From a virus (Duplodnaviria; Heunggongvirae; Uroviricota; Caudoviricetes), in IMG/VR virus record IMGVR_UViG_2711768068_000009: DNA of 5,217 nucleotides. One strand, written 5' to 3'. The position numbers and the translations under genes were made by a program. This document shows, in pieces, positions 803 to 5,217 of the stretch. How positions within the stretch are numbered: the stretch's first letter is position 1; each line of letters begins with the position of its first letter. The notes beneath the pieces are model-generated. The model saw nothing but the letters and a program-made list of their open reading frames with translations. It did not search any database and was not told the DNA's origin.

Positions 803-2949
803 TGGCAATTATTGATGATGTGATCGGCGTGTTTTCCCCCGGGTGGAAAGCAGCCAGACTGCGTTCAAGGGCGTTAATCATGGCCTATGAGGCGGTGAAA
901 CCGACCCGGACACATAAAGCCCGGCGGGAAAATCGCTCTGCTGATCAGCTCAGTAAATACGGTGCGGTTTCCCTGCGGGAGCAGGCCCGTTTTCTGGATA
1001 TCAATCATGACCTGGTGATTGGTGTGTTTGACAAGCTGGAAGAGCGGGTGATTGGTGCCAGGGGAATTATTGTGGAGCCTCAGCCATTACGAAAAAACGG
1101 GGAAATGGCGGCTGAGCTGGCTGCGGATATCCGCCGTTTGTGGGCTGAATGGTCCGTGAGTCCGGATGTGACAGGGCAGTATACCCGTCCTGTGCTTGAA
1201 CGTTTACTGCTGCGGACCTGGCTGCGGGATGGTGAAGTGTTTGCGCAGATGGTCAGTGGTGCGGGAAACGGTCTGGAACGGACGGCAGGAGTGCCATTCT
1301 GGCTTGAGGCGATGGAGCCGGATTTTGTTCCCATGCGCACTGATGAATCCGCCGGACTGAATCAGGGGGTTTTTCTTGATGAGTGGGGAAGACCGAAAAA
1401 ATATCTGGTTTATAAAAATTATCCGGTCAGCGGCCGGCAGAGTGATACGAAAGAAATCGCTGCCGGAAAAATGATCCACCTGAAGTTCACTCGTCGTCTG
1501 CATCAGACGCGAGGCTCATCCATGTTATCGGGGGTGCTGATGCGGATCAGTGCCCTTAAGGAGTATGAGGATGCGGAACTGACAGCGGCGCGTATTGCTG
1601 CGGCGCTGGGACTGTATATCCGTAAAGGTGACGGACAGGACTATGAAGATCCGGGGAGCAAAGAGACCGAGCGGGAAGTCCATATCACCCCGGGTATTAT
1701 TTATGACGATTTGCGCAAGGGCGAGGATATCGGCATGGTCAAATCTGACCGTCCCAATCCCAACCTTGAAACTTTCCGCAACGGCCAGTTGCGTGCAGTG
1801 GCAGCAGGCAGTCGTCTGAGTTTTTCCAGTGCGGCGCGTAACTATAACGGCACCTACAGCGCCCAGCGGCAGGAGTTGGTCGAGTCCACGGATGGTTACC
1901 TGATCCTGCAGGACTGTTTTATTGGCGCGGTAACCCGCCCGGTGTACCGGACATGGCTGAATATGGTGGTTGCGGCAGGTCTGCTGAAAATTCCGGCGGA
2001 TTCATCAGTGCGCATGGGAACAAAATCCGGCTCCATCGCCTCAAGCCAGAATGGCACTCCAGGAGTGCCATTCTGGCTTGAGGCGATGGAGCCGGATTTT
2101 GTTCCCATGCGCACTGATGAATCCGCCGGACTGAATCAGGGGGTTTTTCTTGATGAGTGGGGAAGACCGAAAAAATATCTGGTTTATAAAAATTATCCGG
2201 TCAGCGGCCGGCAGAGTGATACGAAAGAAATCGCTGCCGGAAAAATGATCCACCTGAAGTTCACTCGTCGTCTGCATCAGACGCGAGGCTCATCCATGTT
2301 ATCAGGGGTGCTGATGCGGATCAGTGCCCTTAAGGAGTATGAGGATGCGGAACTGACTGCGGCGCGTATTGCTGCGGCGCTGGGACTGTATATCCGTAAA
2401 GGTGACGGGCAGGACTATGAAGATCCGGGGATCAAAGAAACCGAGCGGGAAGTCAATATCACCCCGGGTATTATTTATGACGATTTGCGCAAGGGCGAGG
2501 ATATCGGCATGGTCAAATCTGACCGTCCCAATCCCAACCTTGAAACTTTCCGCAACGGCCAGTTGCGTGCAGTGGCAGCAGGCAGTCGTCTGAGTTTTTC
2601 CAGTGCGGCGCGTAACTATAACGGCACCTACAGCGCCCAGCGGCAGGAGTTGGTCGAGTCCACGGATGGTTACCTGATCCTGCAGGACTGTTTTATTGGC
2701 GCGGTAACCCGCCCGGTGTACCGGACATGGCTGAATATGGTGGTTGCGGCAGGTCTGCTGAAAATTCCGGCGGATGTGGAGATGAAAACGCTATATAACG
2801 CGACGTATTCCGGTCCGGTGATGCCGTGGATCGACCCGGTTAAGGAAGCTGAAGCCTGGAGAATTCAGATCCGGGGTGGTGCAGCGACAGAATCTGACTG
2901 GGTGCGTGCCGGCGGGCGCAATCCGGATGAGGTCAAACGTACAGAGTGA
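802..2949 (+). CDS. Portal protein, lambda gpB family, aberrant: 715-aa ORF with an internal in-frame 258-codon duplication and a truncated C-terminus
   Basis: ATG 802 follows GAGG at 793-796. The N-terminal region and core show lambda gpB-like segments (RENRSADQLSKYGA...HDLVIGVF; MIHLKFTRRLHQTRG). Residues encoded by 1287..2001 are repeated at 2061..2775, joined by a 20-aa linker encoded by an inverted segment. The ORF ends at TGA 2947-2949, created by the second duplication junction, and lacks the native last 45 residues. Confidence 0.75.
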   Translation: MAIIDDVIGVFSPGWKAARLRSRALIMAYEAVKPTRTHKARRENRSADQLSKYGAVSLREQARFLDINHDLVIGVFDKLEERVIGARGIIVEPQPLRKNGEMAAELAADIRRLWAEWSVSPDVTGQYTRPVLERLLLRTWLRDGEVFAQMVSGAGNGLERTAGVPFWLEAMEPDFVPMRTDESAGLNQGVFLDEWGRPKKYLVYKNYPVSGRQSDTKEIAAGKMIHLKFTRRLHQTRGSSMLSGVLMRISALKEYEDAELTAARIAAALGLYIRKGDGQDYEDPGSKETEREVHITPGIIYDDLRKGEDIGMVKSDRPNPNLETFRNGQLRAVAAGSRLSFSSAARNYNGTYSAQRQELVESTDGYLILQDCFIGAVTRPVYRTWLNMVVAAGLLKIPADSSVRMGTKSGSIASSQNGTPGVPFWLEAMEPDFVPMRTDESAGLNQGVFLDEWGRPKKYLVYKNYPVSGRQSDTKEIAAGKMIHLKFTRRLHQTRGSSMLSGVLMRISALKEYEDAELTAARIAAALGLYIRKGDGQDYEDPGIKETEREVNITPGIIYDDLRKGEDIGMVKSDRPNPNLETFRNGQLRAVAAGSRLSFSSAARNYNGTYSAQRQELVESTDGYLILQDCFIGAVTRPVYRTWLNMVVAAGLLKIPADVEMKTLYNATYSGPVMPWIDPVKEAEAWRIQIRGGAATESDWVRAGGRNPDEVKRTE
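1287..2001. repeat. Direct repeat A, copy 1 (715 bp, portal core)
   Basis: Matches 2061..2775 at a 774-bp offset with 6 mismatches (1530, 1584, 1635, 1658, 1665, 1681), compared by eye. Confidence 0.9.
1992..2130. repeat. Perfect inverted repeat / palindrome, 69-bp arms (1992..2060 and 2062..2130) around a single central base at 2061
   Basis: 1992..2060 is the exact reverse complement of 2062..2130, checked base by base; symmetry breaks at 1991/2131. The left arm is an inverted copy of the start of repeat A. Confidence 0.9.
2061..2775. repeat. Direct repeat A, copy 2 (715 bp, portal core)
   Basis: Near-identical to 1287..2001. The match to the downstream copy continues to 2940. Confidence 0.9.
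2212..2940. repeat. Direct repeat B, copy 1 (729 bp, portal core plus C-terminal region)
   Basis: Matches 2942..3670 at a 730-bp offset with about 8 mismatches. A single unmatched A at 2941 separates the copies. Confidence 0.9.
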
Positions 2950-3670
2950 TACGAAAGAAATCGCTGCCGGAAAAATGATCCACCTGAAGTTCACTCGTCG
3001 TCTGCATCAGACGCGAGGCTCATCCATGTTATCGGGGGTGCTGATGCGGATCAGTGCCCTTAAGGAGTATGAGGATGCGGAACTGACTGCGGCGCGTATT
3101 GCTGCGGCGCTGGGACTGTATATCCGTAAAGGTGACGGACAGGACTATGAAGATCCGGGGAGCAAAGAGACCGAGCGGGAAGTCCATATCACCCCGGGTA
3201 TTATTTATGACGATTTGCGCAAGGGCGAGGATATCGGCATGGTCAAATCTGACCGTCCCAATCCCAACCTTGAAACTTTCCGCAACGGCCAGTTGCGTGC
3301 AGTGGCAGCTGGCAGTCGTCTGAGTTTTTCCAGTGCGGCGCGTAACTATAACGGCACCTACAGCGCCCAGAGGCAGGAGCTGGTCGAGTCCACGGATGGT
3401 TACCTGATCCTGCAGGACTGTTTTATTGGCGCGGTAACCCGCCCGGTGTACCGGACATGGCTGAATATGGTGGTTGCGGCAGGTCTGCTGAAAATTCCGG
3501 CGGATGTGGAGATGAAAACGCTATATAACGCGACGTATTCCGGTCCGGTGATGCCGTGGATCGACCCGGTTAAGGAAGCTGAAGCCTGGAGAATTCAGAT
3601 CCGGGGTGGTGCAGCGACAGAATCTGACTGGGTGCGTGCCGGCGGGCGCAATCCGGATGAGGTCAAACGT
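2942..3670. repeat. Direct repeat B, copy 2 (729 bp)
   Basis: Near-identical to 2212..2940. The 730-bp period is not a multiple of 3, so it shifts the frame. Confidence 0.9.
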
Positions 3671-3740
3671 CGCCGCAAGGCTGAAATTGATGAAAACAGC
3701 AGACTGGGGCTGGTCTTTGATACTGACCCCGTCAACGACA

Positions 3741-3747
3741 AAGGAGG
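3741..3747 (+). promoter_or_regulatory. Shine-Dalgarno AAGGAGG for the prohead protease gene
   Basis: AAGGAGG lies 5 nt upstream of in-frame GTG 3753, inside the 3' end of the portal reading frame. Confidence 0.5.
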
Positions 3748-3752
3748 CAACA

Positions 3753-5217
3753 GTGCCGGAACTGAACAACAGCGTCAGCAGGCCACCGACAGCCAGCATG
3801 AAGAATAAATCCTGGTTCAGGATGCAGGCGGGGGGGCAGGGTGAGGCGGATATTTATATTTATGACGAGATTGGTTTCTGGGGCGTCACCGCGAAGCAGT
3901 TTGTCAGCGATATGAATGCCCTGGGTGATATCACCCACATTAATCTCCACATCAACTCACCGGGTGGCGATGTTTTTGAAGGCATCGCCATTTTTAATGC
4001 CCTGAAAAATCACGGTGCGGCCATTACCGTGTATGTGGATGGCGTTGCCGCCTCGATGGCATCCCTGATTGCGATGGCCGGTGACACGGTCATTATGCCG
4101 GAAAATGCCTTCATGATGATCCATAAACCCTGGGGGATCAGCGGTGGTGATGCGGAGAAAATGCGCACTTATGCCGAACGTCTGGACAAACTTGAGTCGG
4201 TTATGGTGCCGGTATATGCGCAGAAAACCGGAAAAACTACCGATGAAATTGCCGCCATGCTGGAGGATGAGACCTGGATGTCCGGTGCCGAGTGTCTGGC
4301 ACACGGATTTGCAGACCAGGTGACGCCAGCCGTTAAGGCAATGGCATGTATTCAGTCAAAACGTACAGAGGAATTTAAAAAGATGCCGGAATCCATCCGA
4401 AATATGATCACGCAGCCACACAACTGTGCCCCGCATGATACCACAGTGACAATCCCTGCACCGACGGTAACAGAACCATCACCGGTACCGGCAGTGTCTG
4501 AGGAGGTGACCATTCGTGCCCGCGTTATGGCAGAACAGAAAGCCCGCATGTCAGGCATTAACGATCTGTTTGCCATGTTCGGCGGTCGCTATCAGACGCT
4601 TCAGGCACAGTGCGTGGCTGATCCTGACTGTTCGCTGGAAATGGCCCGCGAGCGCCTGCTGAATGAAATGGGTAAGGAATCTTCACCGACCAACAAAAAC
4701 ACACCGGCCCATATTTATGCCGGAAACGGCAATTTTGTGGGGGACGGGATCCGCCAGGCGATGCTGGCCCGTGCCGGATTTGAAAATGTCGAGAAGGATA
4801 ACGCCTATAACGGGATGACCCTGCGTGAATGGGCTCGCATGTCACTGACGGAGCGCGGTATTGGGGTGGCCAGTTATAACCCCATGCAGATGGTCGGGCT
4901 GGCGCTGACGCACAGCACCTCTGATTTTGGCAATATCCTGCTGGATGTGTCGAACAAGGGGCTGATCCAGGGCTGGGAGGAATCAGAAGAAACCTTCCAG
5001 AAGTGGACCCGTAAGGGCCGCCTGTCAGACTTCAAAACAGCGTATCGCGTGGGGATGGGCGGTTTTGGTTCTCTGCGTCAGGTTCGTGAGGGGGCGGAGT
5101 ATAAATACATCACCACCTCAGATCGCAAGGAGACCATTGCGCTGGCCACTTACGGGGAGATTTTCTCCATCACCCGCCAGGCCATTATCAATGATGATCT
5201 GAATATGCTGGTGGACG
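3753..5217 (+). CDS. ClpP-type (peptidase S14-like) prohead maturation protease continuous with a scaffold/major-capsid-like C-terminal region; 3' end lies outside the window
   Basis: One open frame runs from 3552 to the window end with no stop. ClpP-like motifs are present: INSPGGDVF, GVAASMAS (candidate catalytic Ser codon 4053-4055) and MMIHKPWG (candidate His codon 4122-4124). Preferred start is GTG 3753, 5 nt downstream of AAGGAGG (3741-3747); in-frame ATGs at 3798 and 3822 are alternatives. The capsid-like assignment of the part after about 4330 is inference from position and architecture. Confidence 0.75.
   Translation, partial: MPELNNSVSRPPTASMKNKSWFRMQAGGQGEADIYIYDEIGFWGVTAKQFVSDMNALGDITHINLHINSPGGDVFEGIAIFNALKNHGAAITVYVDGVAASMASLIAMAGDTVIMPENAFMMIHKPWGISGGDAEKMRTYAERLDKLESVMVPVYAQKTGKTTDEIAAMLEDETWMSGAECLAHGFADQVTPAVKAMACIQSKRTEEFKKMPESIRNMITQPHNCAPHDTTVTIPAPTVTEPSPVPAVSEEVTIRARVMAEQKARMSGINDLFAMFGGRYQTLQAQCVADPDCSLEMARERLLNEMGKESSPTNKNTPAHIYAGNGNFVGDGIRQAMLARAGFENVEKDNAYNGMTLREWARMSLTERGIGVASYNPMQMVGLALTHSTSDFGNILLDVSNKGLIQGWEESEETFQKWTRKGRLSDFKTAYRVGMGGFGSLRQVREGAEYKYITTSDRKETIALATYGEIFSITRQAIINDDLNMLVD

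Follow-up and report, generated by a model that had tools for sequence, protein, structure and literature searches.

Gene content of the window

The window, by which we mean the whole 5,217-bp stretch of DNA analysed, is the head-gene module (terminase, small protein, portal, protease/capsid) of an Stx/Sakai-type lambdoid E. coli prophage. Features are on the plus strand unless stated otherwise. The 3′ part of a terminase large subunit gene of the gpA family (1–593; Pfam GpA_nuclease, E=1e-34) runs off the left window end and is so annotated in natural loci. The terminase-portal gap, at the lambda gpW position, is occupied by a 70-aa small protein annotated as hypothetical (590–802), in which T594 is present, corresponding to Ser2Ile. 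The collection contains the identical protein in 160 blocks, next to a called 500-aa portal at 9 of the 10 places listed (none is called at L094).

Portal codons 1–400 follow in their natural order (802–2001), with two mismatches to the natural loci L002, L036 and L087. The position of the gene is that of the lambda family, GpA_nuclease being encoded upstream and CLP_protease plus Phage_capsid_4 downstream, and annotated natural loci have the same order; the family assignment is clear-cut. Two ORFs score above the Phage_portal_2 (PF05136) gathering cut-off of 32.9 bits: a chimeric 715-aa ORF (802–2949; E=2e-132, 442 bits in two matched stretches) and an ORF at 2876–3808 (131 bits). The former passes from portal residues 1–400 through 20 codons of 2002–2061, which are an inverted piece plus one central base read in frame, into a second copy of portal sequence (copy B), and stops just past the last of three junctions (J3). 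No uninterrupted portal of about 500 codons is present in the window: the gene is split by an inverted piece of 69 nt and by two partial repeats, its frame shifts by +1 at 2941, and the portal reading frame is broken.

The 5′ part of a ClpP-like prohead protease/major capsid fusion gene (3798–5217; Pfam CLP_protease and Phage_capsid_4) runs off the right window end, with its frame open over 473 codons without a stop. This allele is divergent, being at most 98.4% identical to any complete E. coli genome, and its exact strings had no match in IMG/VR, JGI metagenomes or GTDB genomes. Fine-scale blending of alleles was considered for this right-hand part and is not favoured, given that several of its states occur in no close allele and that the differences are 3-nt spaced in an open frame, like those of a genuine unsampled allele.

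Three copies of the portal middle and their joins

Repeats were mapped by self-BLAST, the repeat period being above the 500-nt limit of Tandem Repeats Finder. In the self-comparison, portal sequence occurs in three direct copies that overlap: copy A (1286–2001; haplotype GAAGGCACT), copy B (2060–2940, natural coordinates 1286–2166; haplotype ATGTAAACT) and copy C, which together with the natural portal 3′ end covers 2942–3808 (natural 1438–2304; haplotype GTAGGCTAC) and has its repeated part at 2942–3670. These direct repeats are 99% identical over 716–729 nt, align in register without indels in their shared parts and contain copy-to-copy identical stretches of up to 320 nt. Copy B is offset from copy A by 774 nt (3 x 258) and is therefore in frame with it; the offset of copy C from copy B is 730 nt, a +1 shift. 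The 277 aa that copy C with this 3′ end encodes are identical to natural portal C-termini, and its top match among complete genomes is 99.5%.

The triplication is not a clean tandem, as the 69-nt inverted piece and three non-homologous junctions lie within it; against a natural locus of about 3,713 bp, the window has a surplus of 1,504 bp acquired via three illegitimate joins. The first of them, J1, is an inverted join on a 10-nt microhomology, TCCGGCGGAT (1992–2001), whose partner is found on the opposite strand 645 nt upstream. Across the 3.7 kb of natural sequence there are only 10 pairs of inverted 10-mers, and this pair (1347, 1992) is one of them. The inverted fragment (1992–2060, minus strand) is the reverse complement of 1288–1356 and belongs to a perfect 139-nt palindrome (1992–2130), the fold-back junction J2, in which 69-nt arms flank a single central base, A2061, without a spacer. 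Complementarity at J2 is 1 nt, and as single-stranded DNA the palindrome has a folding energy of -98.3 kcal/mol (z = -23). A rare base, A1287, perfects a local mini-hairpin (GGCA-GGAG-TGCC) exactly at the fold-back point. Snap-back at this hairpin was nevertheless rejected as the origin of J2, since the junction is symmetric through the would-be loop and the 4-nt loop is not kept. At J3 a single untemplated A (2941) connects natural position 2166 to natural position 1438 in a blunt join without microhomology (junction string GGTCAAACGTACAGAGTGATACG); draft contigs frequently end at natural 1432–1461, adjoining the right side of J3.

A de Bruijn-graph hairpin or k-mer artefact was ruled out as the sole cause of this arrangement, considering the odd length of the palindrome with its central base, the 10-nt overlap at J1, the extra base at J3 and identity runs between copies that exceed usual k values. 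The types of join at J1–J3 are beyond what a collapsed-repeat assembly error alone would produce. Given that a de Bruijn assembler by itself can make neither a 10-nt join nor a blunt join with an extra base, some real molecule, formed in vivo or in vitro, carried them.

Differences between the copies are standing portal alleles

The sequence-only reading had counted nine variable sites, seven synonymous and two not; there are exactly nine, and all of its codon and amino-acid calls are right. In copy-A coordinates (1530–1876; add 774 for copy B, 2304–2650, and 1504 for copy C, 3034–3380), the states in copies A/B/C are 1530 G/A/G, 1584 A/T/T, 1635 A/G/A, 1658 G/T/G, 1665 G/A/G, 1681 C/A/C, 1806 A/A/T, 1867 C/C/A and 1876 T/T/C, all within 347 nt. 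Five private states belong to copy B, three to copy C and one to copy A. Both non-synonymous changes, S286I and H294N, are in copy B, and the synonymous ones include two first-position changes, CGG/AGG (Arg) and TTG/CTG (Leu).

Among random single-base changes in 1438–2001, 24–30% are expected to be synonymous, and seven or more out of nine would then occur with P 0.001–0.004. Each of the nine alternative bases is already present in a set of 49 close natural portal alleles, a set that shows just 48 of the 1,692 possible alternative states (2.8%), so that a 9/9 overlap has P ~1e-14. The nine differences are standing natural alleles of the portal gene, present as short patches from at least three allele types (a common A type, a rare L003 type and an L027-like type).

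These same counts uphold the earlier view that sequencing error or fresh mutation is unlikely, and they refute both, along with post-duplication mutation in general and adenine-directed diversification of the DGR type; we regard this whole class of explanation as next to impossible. At 8 of the 9 sites an A is present in one copy or another, a weak hint at best of adenine mutagenesis, but all three copies show the A state at some sites and none holds it consistently as a template repeat would. Nor does the window encode a reverse transcriptase, its Pfam domains being those of terminase, portal, ClpP and capsid only.

The synonymous excess had also been read as purifying selection on diverged functional copies. 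Natural polymorphism across the variable stretch is 83% synonymous, which predicts the observed 7/9; the bias was thus inherited, having arisen through purifying selection on portal genes that are intact and lie elsewhere. Selection did shape the pre-existing alleles, and the excess is no evidence that it acted on the copies in the window.

Haplotypes and natural loci

Copy A carries a common natural haplotype (L002, L087, L097 and others). Copy B has its closest natural match in L003, with three mismatches (2061, 2580 and 2650), and is a mosaic, L003-type up to 2455 and L097-type thereafter; in copy-A coordinates it is L003-type at 1530–1681 and A-type from 1806 on. Copy C is A-type with a lone T1584, flanked by A-type states 51–54 nt to either side, plus an L027-like TAC at 1806–1876. 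Copies A and B have in common the minority T1876 and the rare A1287, the latter present in 1 of 5,426 complete genomes, and allele type switches across each junction. Neither IMG/VR nor the ~740 copies of the portal from 5,426 complete E. coli genomes gave an exact match to the local combinations of copies B and C (114-nt and 134-nt). The expectation that each copy's combination would match a distinct prophage locus is thus borne out for copy A and fails for copies B and C, which are patchworks without an exact match.

The B-type patch was found in only four of the 5,426 complete genomes, each with one copy of this portal. A source in three prophages of one genome, as previously suggested, is therefore without a known example, and a mixed population would serve equally well. 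In STEC genomes the near-identical module is present in several copies, this portal occurring as many as 4 times and the whole window matching at as many as 9 places.

Listed natural loci comprise 12 phage records, 533 of the 5,426 complete E. coli genomes and 2 plasmid records, all with a locus of about 3,713 bp; none of the phage, complete-genome or plasmid loci listed or fetched has the extra 1,504 bp or the joins. Exact junction strings had no match in IMG/VR, GTDB representative genomes or JGI metagenomes. Products of the two chimeric ORFs (715 aa and 293 aa) have no counterpart on record, and the 277-aa and 70-aa proteins are recorded only in normal loci or in contigs that start inside the portal gene. 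The absence of the extra 1,504 bp and of the junctions from the natural loci fits the earlier proposal that the copies were joined by misassembly or recombination.

Origin of the rearranged portal

The portal middle is present three times through three illegitimate joins, and a stable genomic locus is less likely to account for it than a chimeric or mis-assembled product. Reading from the sequence, we consider it somewhat probable, and the likeliest of the explanations, that the window is a chimeric or assembly artefact in which co-occurring alleles were mixed; it is a mix of existing portal variants, probably a chimeric or mis-assembled one, and not new biology. The sample would have held several closely related portal alleles, either from lambdoid prophages of one strain or from several strains or phages. 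A chimera of the polymerase template-switch type may have made the joins: synthesis would have gone forward to 2001, switched to the opposite strand on the 10-nt microhomology, turned back on itself 69 nt later and started yet again past natural position 2166. The states could then have been scattered over the three copies by consensus building or polishing that drew on reads of other alleles, or by further switching between alleles; a per-site consensus of mixed reads would yield just such a lone T1584 amid A-type states.

Several observations favour such an artefact: the joins and added 1,504 bp are in no listed natural locus, copies B and C are mosaics without a database match, and the portal frame is broken. 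A spacer-less 139-nt palindrome together with direct repeats of 716–729 nt should also be unstable in E. coli, where a 460-bp perfect palindrome kills cells that have SbcCD, symmetry at the centre being decisive (PMC4245961). In O157, assembly problems arising from the high similarity of lambdoid prophages are documented (PMC4587872), and this, along with the draft contigs that break at natural 1432–1461, argues in the same direction. Inverted chimeras from multiple displacement amplification (MDA) have 2–21 bp of complementarity between sites <10 kb apart (PMC1855051), ranges that J1 matches (10 nt, 645 nt), which supports a template-switch chimera. Against an artefact, three switches within 2.3 kb are dense compared with the MDA rate of roughly one chimeric junction per 10–22 kb (PMC1855051), the clean and open flanking genes indicate a sequence not of generally poor quality, and living cells too make microhomology-guided inverted joins (PMC4417113). 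Since intramolecular amplification chimeras give identical copies, allele mixing must moreover be assumed as a second step. The right-hand allele is also missing from databases and yet looks natural, so that the absence of the copy B and C haplotypes weighs little.

A real rearrangement, formed in a defective lambdoid prophage or a replicating phage genome by a replication-based complex event, seems to us a tentative alternative, less likely than an artefact. The template switch would have been of the U-turn or fold-back kind, resembling a tandem inversion duplication that has lost most of its inverted copy, and a further direct duplication would have been added. The allele differences would stem from related prophages in the same cell, by template switching or gene conversion, or from the mixing of reads when a real structure was assembled. 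J1 is homology-guided like microhomology-mediated U-turn inversions, and the forward, inverted, forward order is the topology of tandem inversion duplications (PMC4417113). A1287, shared by copies A and B, fits a common parent besides perfecting the mini-hairpin at the fold-back point; STEC genomes have several near-identical modules, such prophages recombine (PMC4587872), and the flanking genes are intact. However, a duplication in one prophage begins with identical copies, and nine natural-allele differences in three patches would need several later conversions, on repeats that RecA should quickly delete and beside a perfect palindrome that SbcCD attacks (PMC4245961). With the portal broken there is no apparent selection to retain it, the fold-back is symmetric to its centre and lacks the 4-nt loop expected from a GGCA/TGCC snap-back, nothing similar occurs in IMG/VR or in the listed phage, complete-genome and plasmid loci, and the donor patch of copy B is known from only four complete genomes, each with a single portal copy. 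It is improbable, in our judgement, that everything arose in one in vivo event, in which break-induced or fork-restart replication would have switched template repeatedly among co-resident, co-replicating lambdoid prophages, employing the 10-nt inverted microhomology, the fold-back and a blunt restart. A shade less probable again is pure collapsed-paralogue misassembly, with each copy the faithful portal sequence of a different prophage and the assembler stringing them together. The natural alleles of copy A, the nine natural variant states, the change of allele type across each junction and the contig breaks clustering near natural 1432–1461 in draft assemblies all agree with it. Yet the local haplotypes of copies B and C match no natural portal copy in IMG/VR or the 5,426 complete genomes (a comparison outside which the source genome lies), copy B has A1287 and T1876 in common with copy A, and overlap or k-mer joining yields no 1-nt insertion, opposite-strand 10-nt overlap or perfect fold-back.

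The main value of the case is in quality control: neither a novel portal architecture nor an expanded gene family nor a diversification system should be read into the window. It serves as a worked example of the way in which surplus assembly copies soak up the allele states of related prophages and display a convincing but inherited signature of purifying selection. If reads showed it to be real, the structure would amount to a modest, well-resolved instance of template switching in replication between prophages of one host and to no new kind of system; as a single in vivo event, one broken portal gene would record three prophage alleles, a natural footprint of multi-template MMBIR-like replication between E. 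coli prophages.

Comparison with known systems

Pieces of the window are 99–99.9% identical in nucleotide sequence to the lambda-family portal (Phage_portal_2, gpB-like) of phage CP-1639, Stx2a phages, VT1-Sakai and O157:H7 prophages, and the gene order terminase, 70-aa protein, portal and ClpP/capsid fusion is shared with Stx/Sakai-type lambdoid prophages. The natural portal is a single 1,503-bp ORF of 500 codons, whereas the window has 1,504 bp more, an inverted piece and a frameshift, which leave ORFs of 715 aa and ~277–310 aa.

J1 lies within the 2–21 bp and <10 kb reported for inverted MDA chimeras (Lasken & Stockwell 2007, PMC1855051), from which the window differs in its three switches in 2.3 kb, a higher density than reported, and in its blunt join with an extra base. 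Intramolecular chimeras of this kind would also share allele content, which the copies in the window do not.

Replication-based rearrangements of the DUP-TRP/INV-DUP type are comparable in the forward, inverted, forward order of their copies. Tandem inversion duplication (Kugelberg et al. 2010, cited in PMC4417113) and U-turn-like inversion can be compared with the window in this order and in having a microhomology at one inverted junction and a palindrome at the other, but the inverted part of the window is only 69 nt long and an additional direct copy follows. Copies identical at formation contrast with nine differences, all of them natural alleles from at least three allele types, and the window has no selectable gene dosage benefit.

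Lambdoid prophages are documented to recombine with one another (PMC4587872). Although its local combinations occur in no sampled natural copy and its alleles lie next to one another within one broken gene and not at loci of their own, the window resembles recombinant lambdoid mosaics in that its copies likewise share variant states patchwise, most of them synonymous.

Head module and its natural relatives

Pfam assignment of the gene content places the 3′ end of a gpA-type terminase large-subunit gene (GpA_nuclease) at 1-593, a 70-codon gene at 590-802, a lambda-family portal gene starting at 802 (Phage_portal_2, 442 bits) and, from 3798 past the right end of the window, a gene fusing a ClpP-like prohead protease to the major capsid protein. 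This is the head module of E. coli Stx/Sakai-type lambdoid prophages: taken in pieces, the window matches phage CP-1639, Stx2a-converting phages, VT1-Sakai and prophages of strains including O157:H7, O111 and O145 at 98-99.9% identity. Where natural loci are annotated, the portal is a single 1,503-bp ORF. The locus spans about 3,713 bp, 1,504 bp less than the window, in all those listed, which are 12 records of phages, 2 of plasmids and the 533 complete E. coli genomes, out of 5,426, that have it.

T594, which changes residue 2 of the 70-aa protein from Ser to Ile, was not found in the first 84 loci collected; the exact 70-aa protein is recorded in 160 collection blocks and adjoins a called 500-aa portal in 9 of the 10 places shown (none is called in locus L094). 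Rather than an error, T594 is a minor allele that occurs in nature. One collected locus in a complete genome (L087; AP024475.1, 3176093-3196305) carries the same head module inside an Stx-encoding prophage, with RIP and SLT_beta domains upstream and its protease/capsid gene interrupted by an IS element (HTH_Tnp_1 and rve genes). L088, a second copy of the module elsewhere in that genome, has an identical portal haplotype.

Three joins build the repeated portal

The repeat path was traced by self-comparison of the window and reading of the junctions. Natural order, that of the ordinary unrepeated locus, holds over 1-2001, where copy A ends. At J1 the sequence passes into the reverse complement of 1288-1356 (1992-2060), the first 10 nt of which (TCCGGCGGAT) are common to the forward sequence. 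It turns back at J2 on a single central base, A2061, giving a perfect 139-nt palindrome (1992-2130; -98 kcal/mol as a hairpin), and continues forward as copy B (2060-2940, natural 1286-2166). At J3 one untemplated A (2941) leads, without microhomology, to copy C, which begins at 2942 with natural 1438 and is followed by natural order to the window end. Homology guides J1, which uses one of just ten inverted 10-mer pairs that the 3.7-kb natural sequence contains; J2 folds back without a spacer, and J3 is blunt but for its one added base.

Copy B is offset by 774 nt, in frame, and copy C by a further 730 nt, a +1 frameshift; the portal gene thereby falls into two ORFs, one chimeric and 715 aa long (802-2949), the other C-terminal and ending at 3808. 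The former frame stays open across J1, the inverted 69-nt piece and J2 (774 = 3 × 258; the 20 codons of 2002-2061 are stop-free), and its product has two portal-domain stretches before the +1 shift at J3. Since the chance of staying open is roughly 0.1, we do not count this as evidence of selection.

Exact strings spanning J2 and J3 had no match in IMG/VR, nor had that of J2 in GTDB representative genomes or that of J3 in JGI metagenomes. No record of the chimeric ORFs was found, and no collection searched held a similar structure. The palindrome centre A2061 equals A1287 of copy A, in a four-fold degenerate Ala codon (GCN) where the nearest relatives have G; A1287 perfects a local mini-hairpin, GGCA-GGAG-TGCC. 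That a rare base sits at the breakpoint may be coincidence or otherwise. Short extra repeat members at 4137-4156 and 5191-5215 (20-25 nt, 72-90% similarity to portal or protease segments) look like chance matches.

Differences between copies are natural polymorphisms

In register, the three copies differ at nine sites without indels, and all nine had been read correctly, with their bases and codons, from the sequence. Five are private to copy B (1530, 1635, 1658, 1665 and 1681), three to copy C (1806, 1867 and 1876) and one to copy A (1584). Seven are synonymous; the other two, S286I and H294N, are both in copy B. Random substitution here would give a synonymous share of 24-30%, so the bias noticed in the sequence-only reading is not due to chance (P = 0.001-0.004 for at least 7 of 9).

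We collected 105 natural loci (5 from complete genomes, 80 from IMG/VR and 20 from NCBI assemblies that were found via exact proteins), among which 49 close alleles are at least 97% identical across the portal gene. Over 1438-2001, 1,692 alternative states are possible, and these 49 alleles show just 48 of them (2.8%). That natural set includes every one of the window's nine alternative states, an outcome with P of about 1e-14 under random change; sequencing error and fresh mutation, discounted in the sequence-only reading on the grounds of synonymous bias, are excluded on this count as well. Mutagenesis of adenines by a diversity-generating retroelement (DGR) is likewise excluded, as the nine states are natural, the A states are scattered among the copies, all three of which have some, and no reverse transcriptase is encoded in the window.

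Natural polymorphism in 1438-2001 is synonymous in 40 of 48 states (83%), a share at which 7-8 of 9 would be expected. The excess of synonymous changes is thus real and was inherited: it stems from purifying selection acting on intact portals elsewhere. The earlier claim of purifying selection holds for those genes; the bias carries no information on selection at the three copies here.

Haplotypes of the copies

The copies had been proposed to be paralogues from distinct prophage loci, and each haplotype was compared with natural loci. Copy A agrees with the proposal: its haplotype, GAAGGCACT, is a common natural one (loci L002, L035, L036, L040, L054, L087 and L088), and 1432-2001 is matched exactly in several draft contigs. 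Copies B and C do not. Over 1530-1681, copy B (ATGTAAACT) agrees at all six sites with a rare allele type (L003, L004, L017 and L018), and at 1806-1876 it has A-type states, including the minority T1876. Copy C (GTAGGCTAC) has A-type states at 1530 and across 1635-1682, between which T1584 stands alone; T1806, A1867 and C1876 follow, a combination seen in L027 only. Neither the 134-nt stretch of copy B joining A1681 to A1806 nor the 114-nt stretch of copy C (G1530-T1584-A1635) is matched exactly in about 740 portal copies of complete genomes or in IMG/VR, the best hits having one mismatch.

The rare B-type patch occurs in four complete genomes only, each with one copy of this portal, so no known genome could supply all three types. 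Copies A and B share A at natural 1287. Among 5,426 complete genomes a single one has this base (PNUSAE008512, in whose record several genes are frameshifted), and among the collected loci only the one fetched through it.

Some caution is due, as the right-hand part is unmatched too, yet looks genuine. The protease/capsid part at 3809-5217 is at most 98.4% identical to any complete E. coli genome (96.1% for 4440-4720), and exact 41-46-nt strings from it found no match in IMG/VR, JGI metagenomes or GTDB genomes. With its frame open and its differences spaced at 3 nt, it has the look of a true allele that has not been sampled; the source of the window is evidently poorly represented in databases. 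Since 1-2001 is a common O157-type allele, the window is also a left/right mosaic.

Possible origin of the joins

An overlap or k-mer assembler by itself does not make joins like J1-J3; these must have existed in some molecule. Strand-displacing amplification typically yields chimeras with an inverted join to a nearby site, over 2-21 bp of complementarity (PMC1855051), and STEC assemblies suffer from likeness among their own lambdoid prophages (PMC4587872). Many NCBI draft contigs (L095-L104) begin within the portal at natural 1432, 1453, 1459 or 1461, adjoining the right side of J3 (1438; window 2942-2965); at natural 1432-1461, related prophages cause a branch point that recurs in assembly graphs. 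The best explanation, which we hold to be somewhat better than an even bet, is that a sample with several co-occurring portal alleles gave rise to a chimeric molecule, an assembly artefact or both. Consensus building would then distribute reads of several alleles over the surplus copies and could leave patches such as those seen, namely a block of 152-518 nt in B and, in C, one isolated site plus a block from about 1806 on.

Three faithful paralogues joined end to end, the clean version of the original proposal, would account for copy A and fail the haplotype comparison at B and C, which makes them improbable; error, new mutation or DGR activity we give next to no weight. A real complex rearrangement in a defective prophage, with co-resident prophages or the assembly supplying the mixture of alleles, is a serious though distinctly weaker contender than a chimera or artefact, given that similar joins, in microhomology-guided U-turn inversions and tandem inversion duplications, are known in vivo (PMC4417113). 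Against a stable locus, duplication within one prophage would begin with identical copies rather than three allele mixtures, the portal is broken with no visible benefit and no searched collection holds a counterpart. In E. coli, instability is to be expected of direct repeats that are 716-729 nt long and 99% identical, and also of the perfect 139-nt palindrome: a 460-bp perfect palindrome is lethal with SbcCD, central symmetry being the decisive feature (PMC4245961). Artefact or real, the window holds ordinary genes of a well-known prophage module and, in the nine differences, ordinary standing variation.
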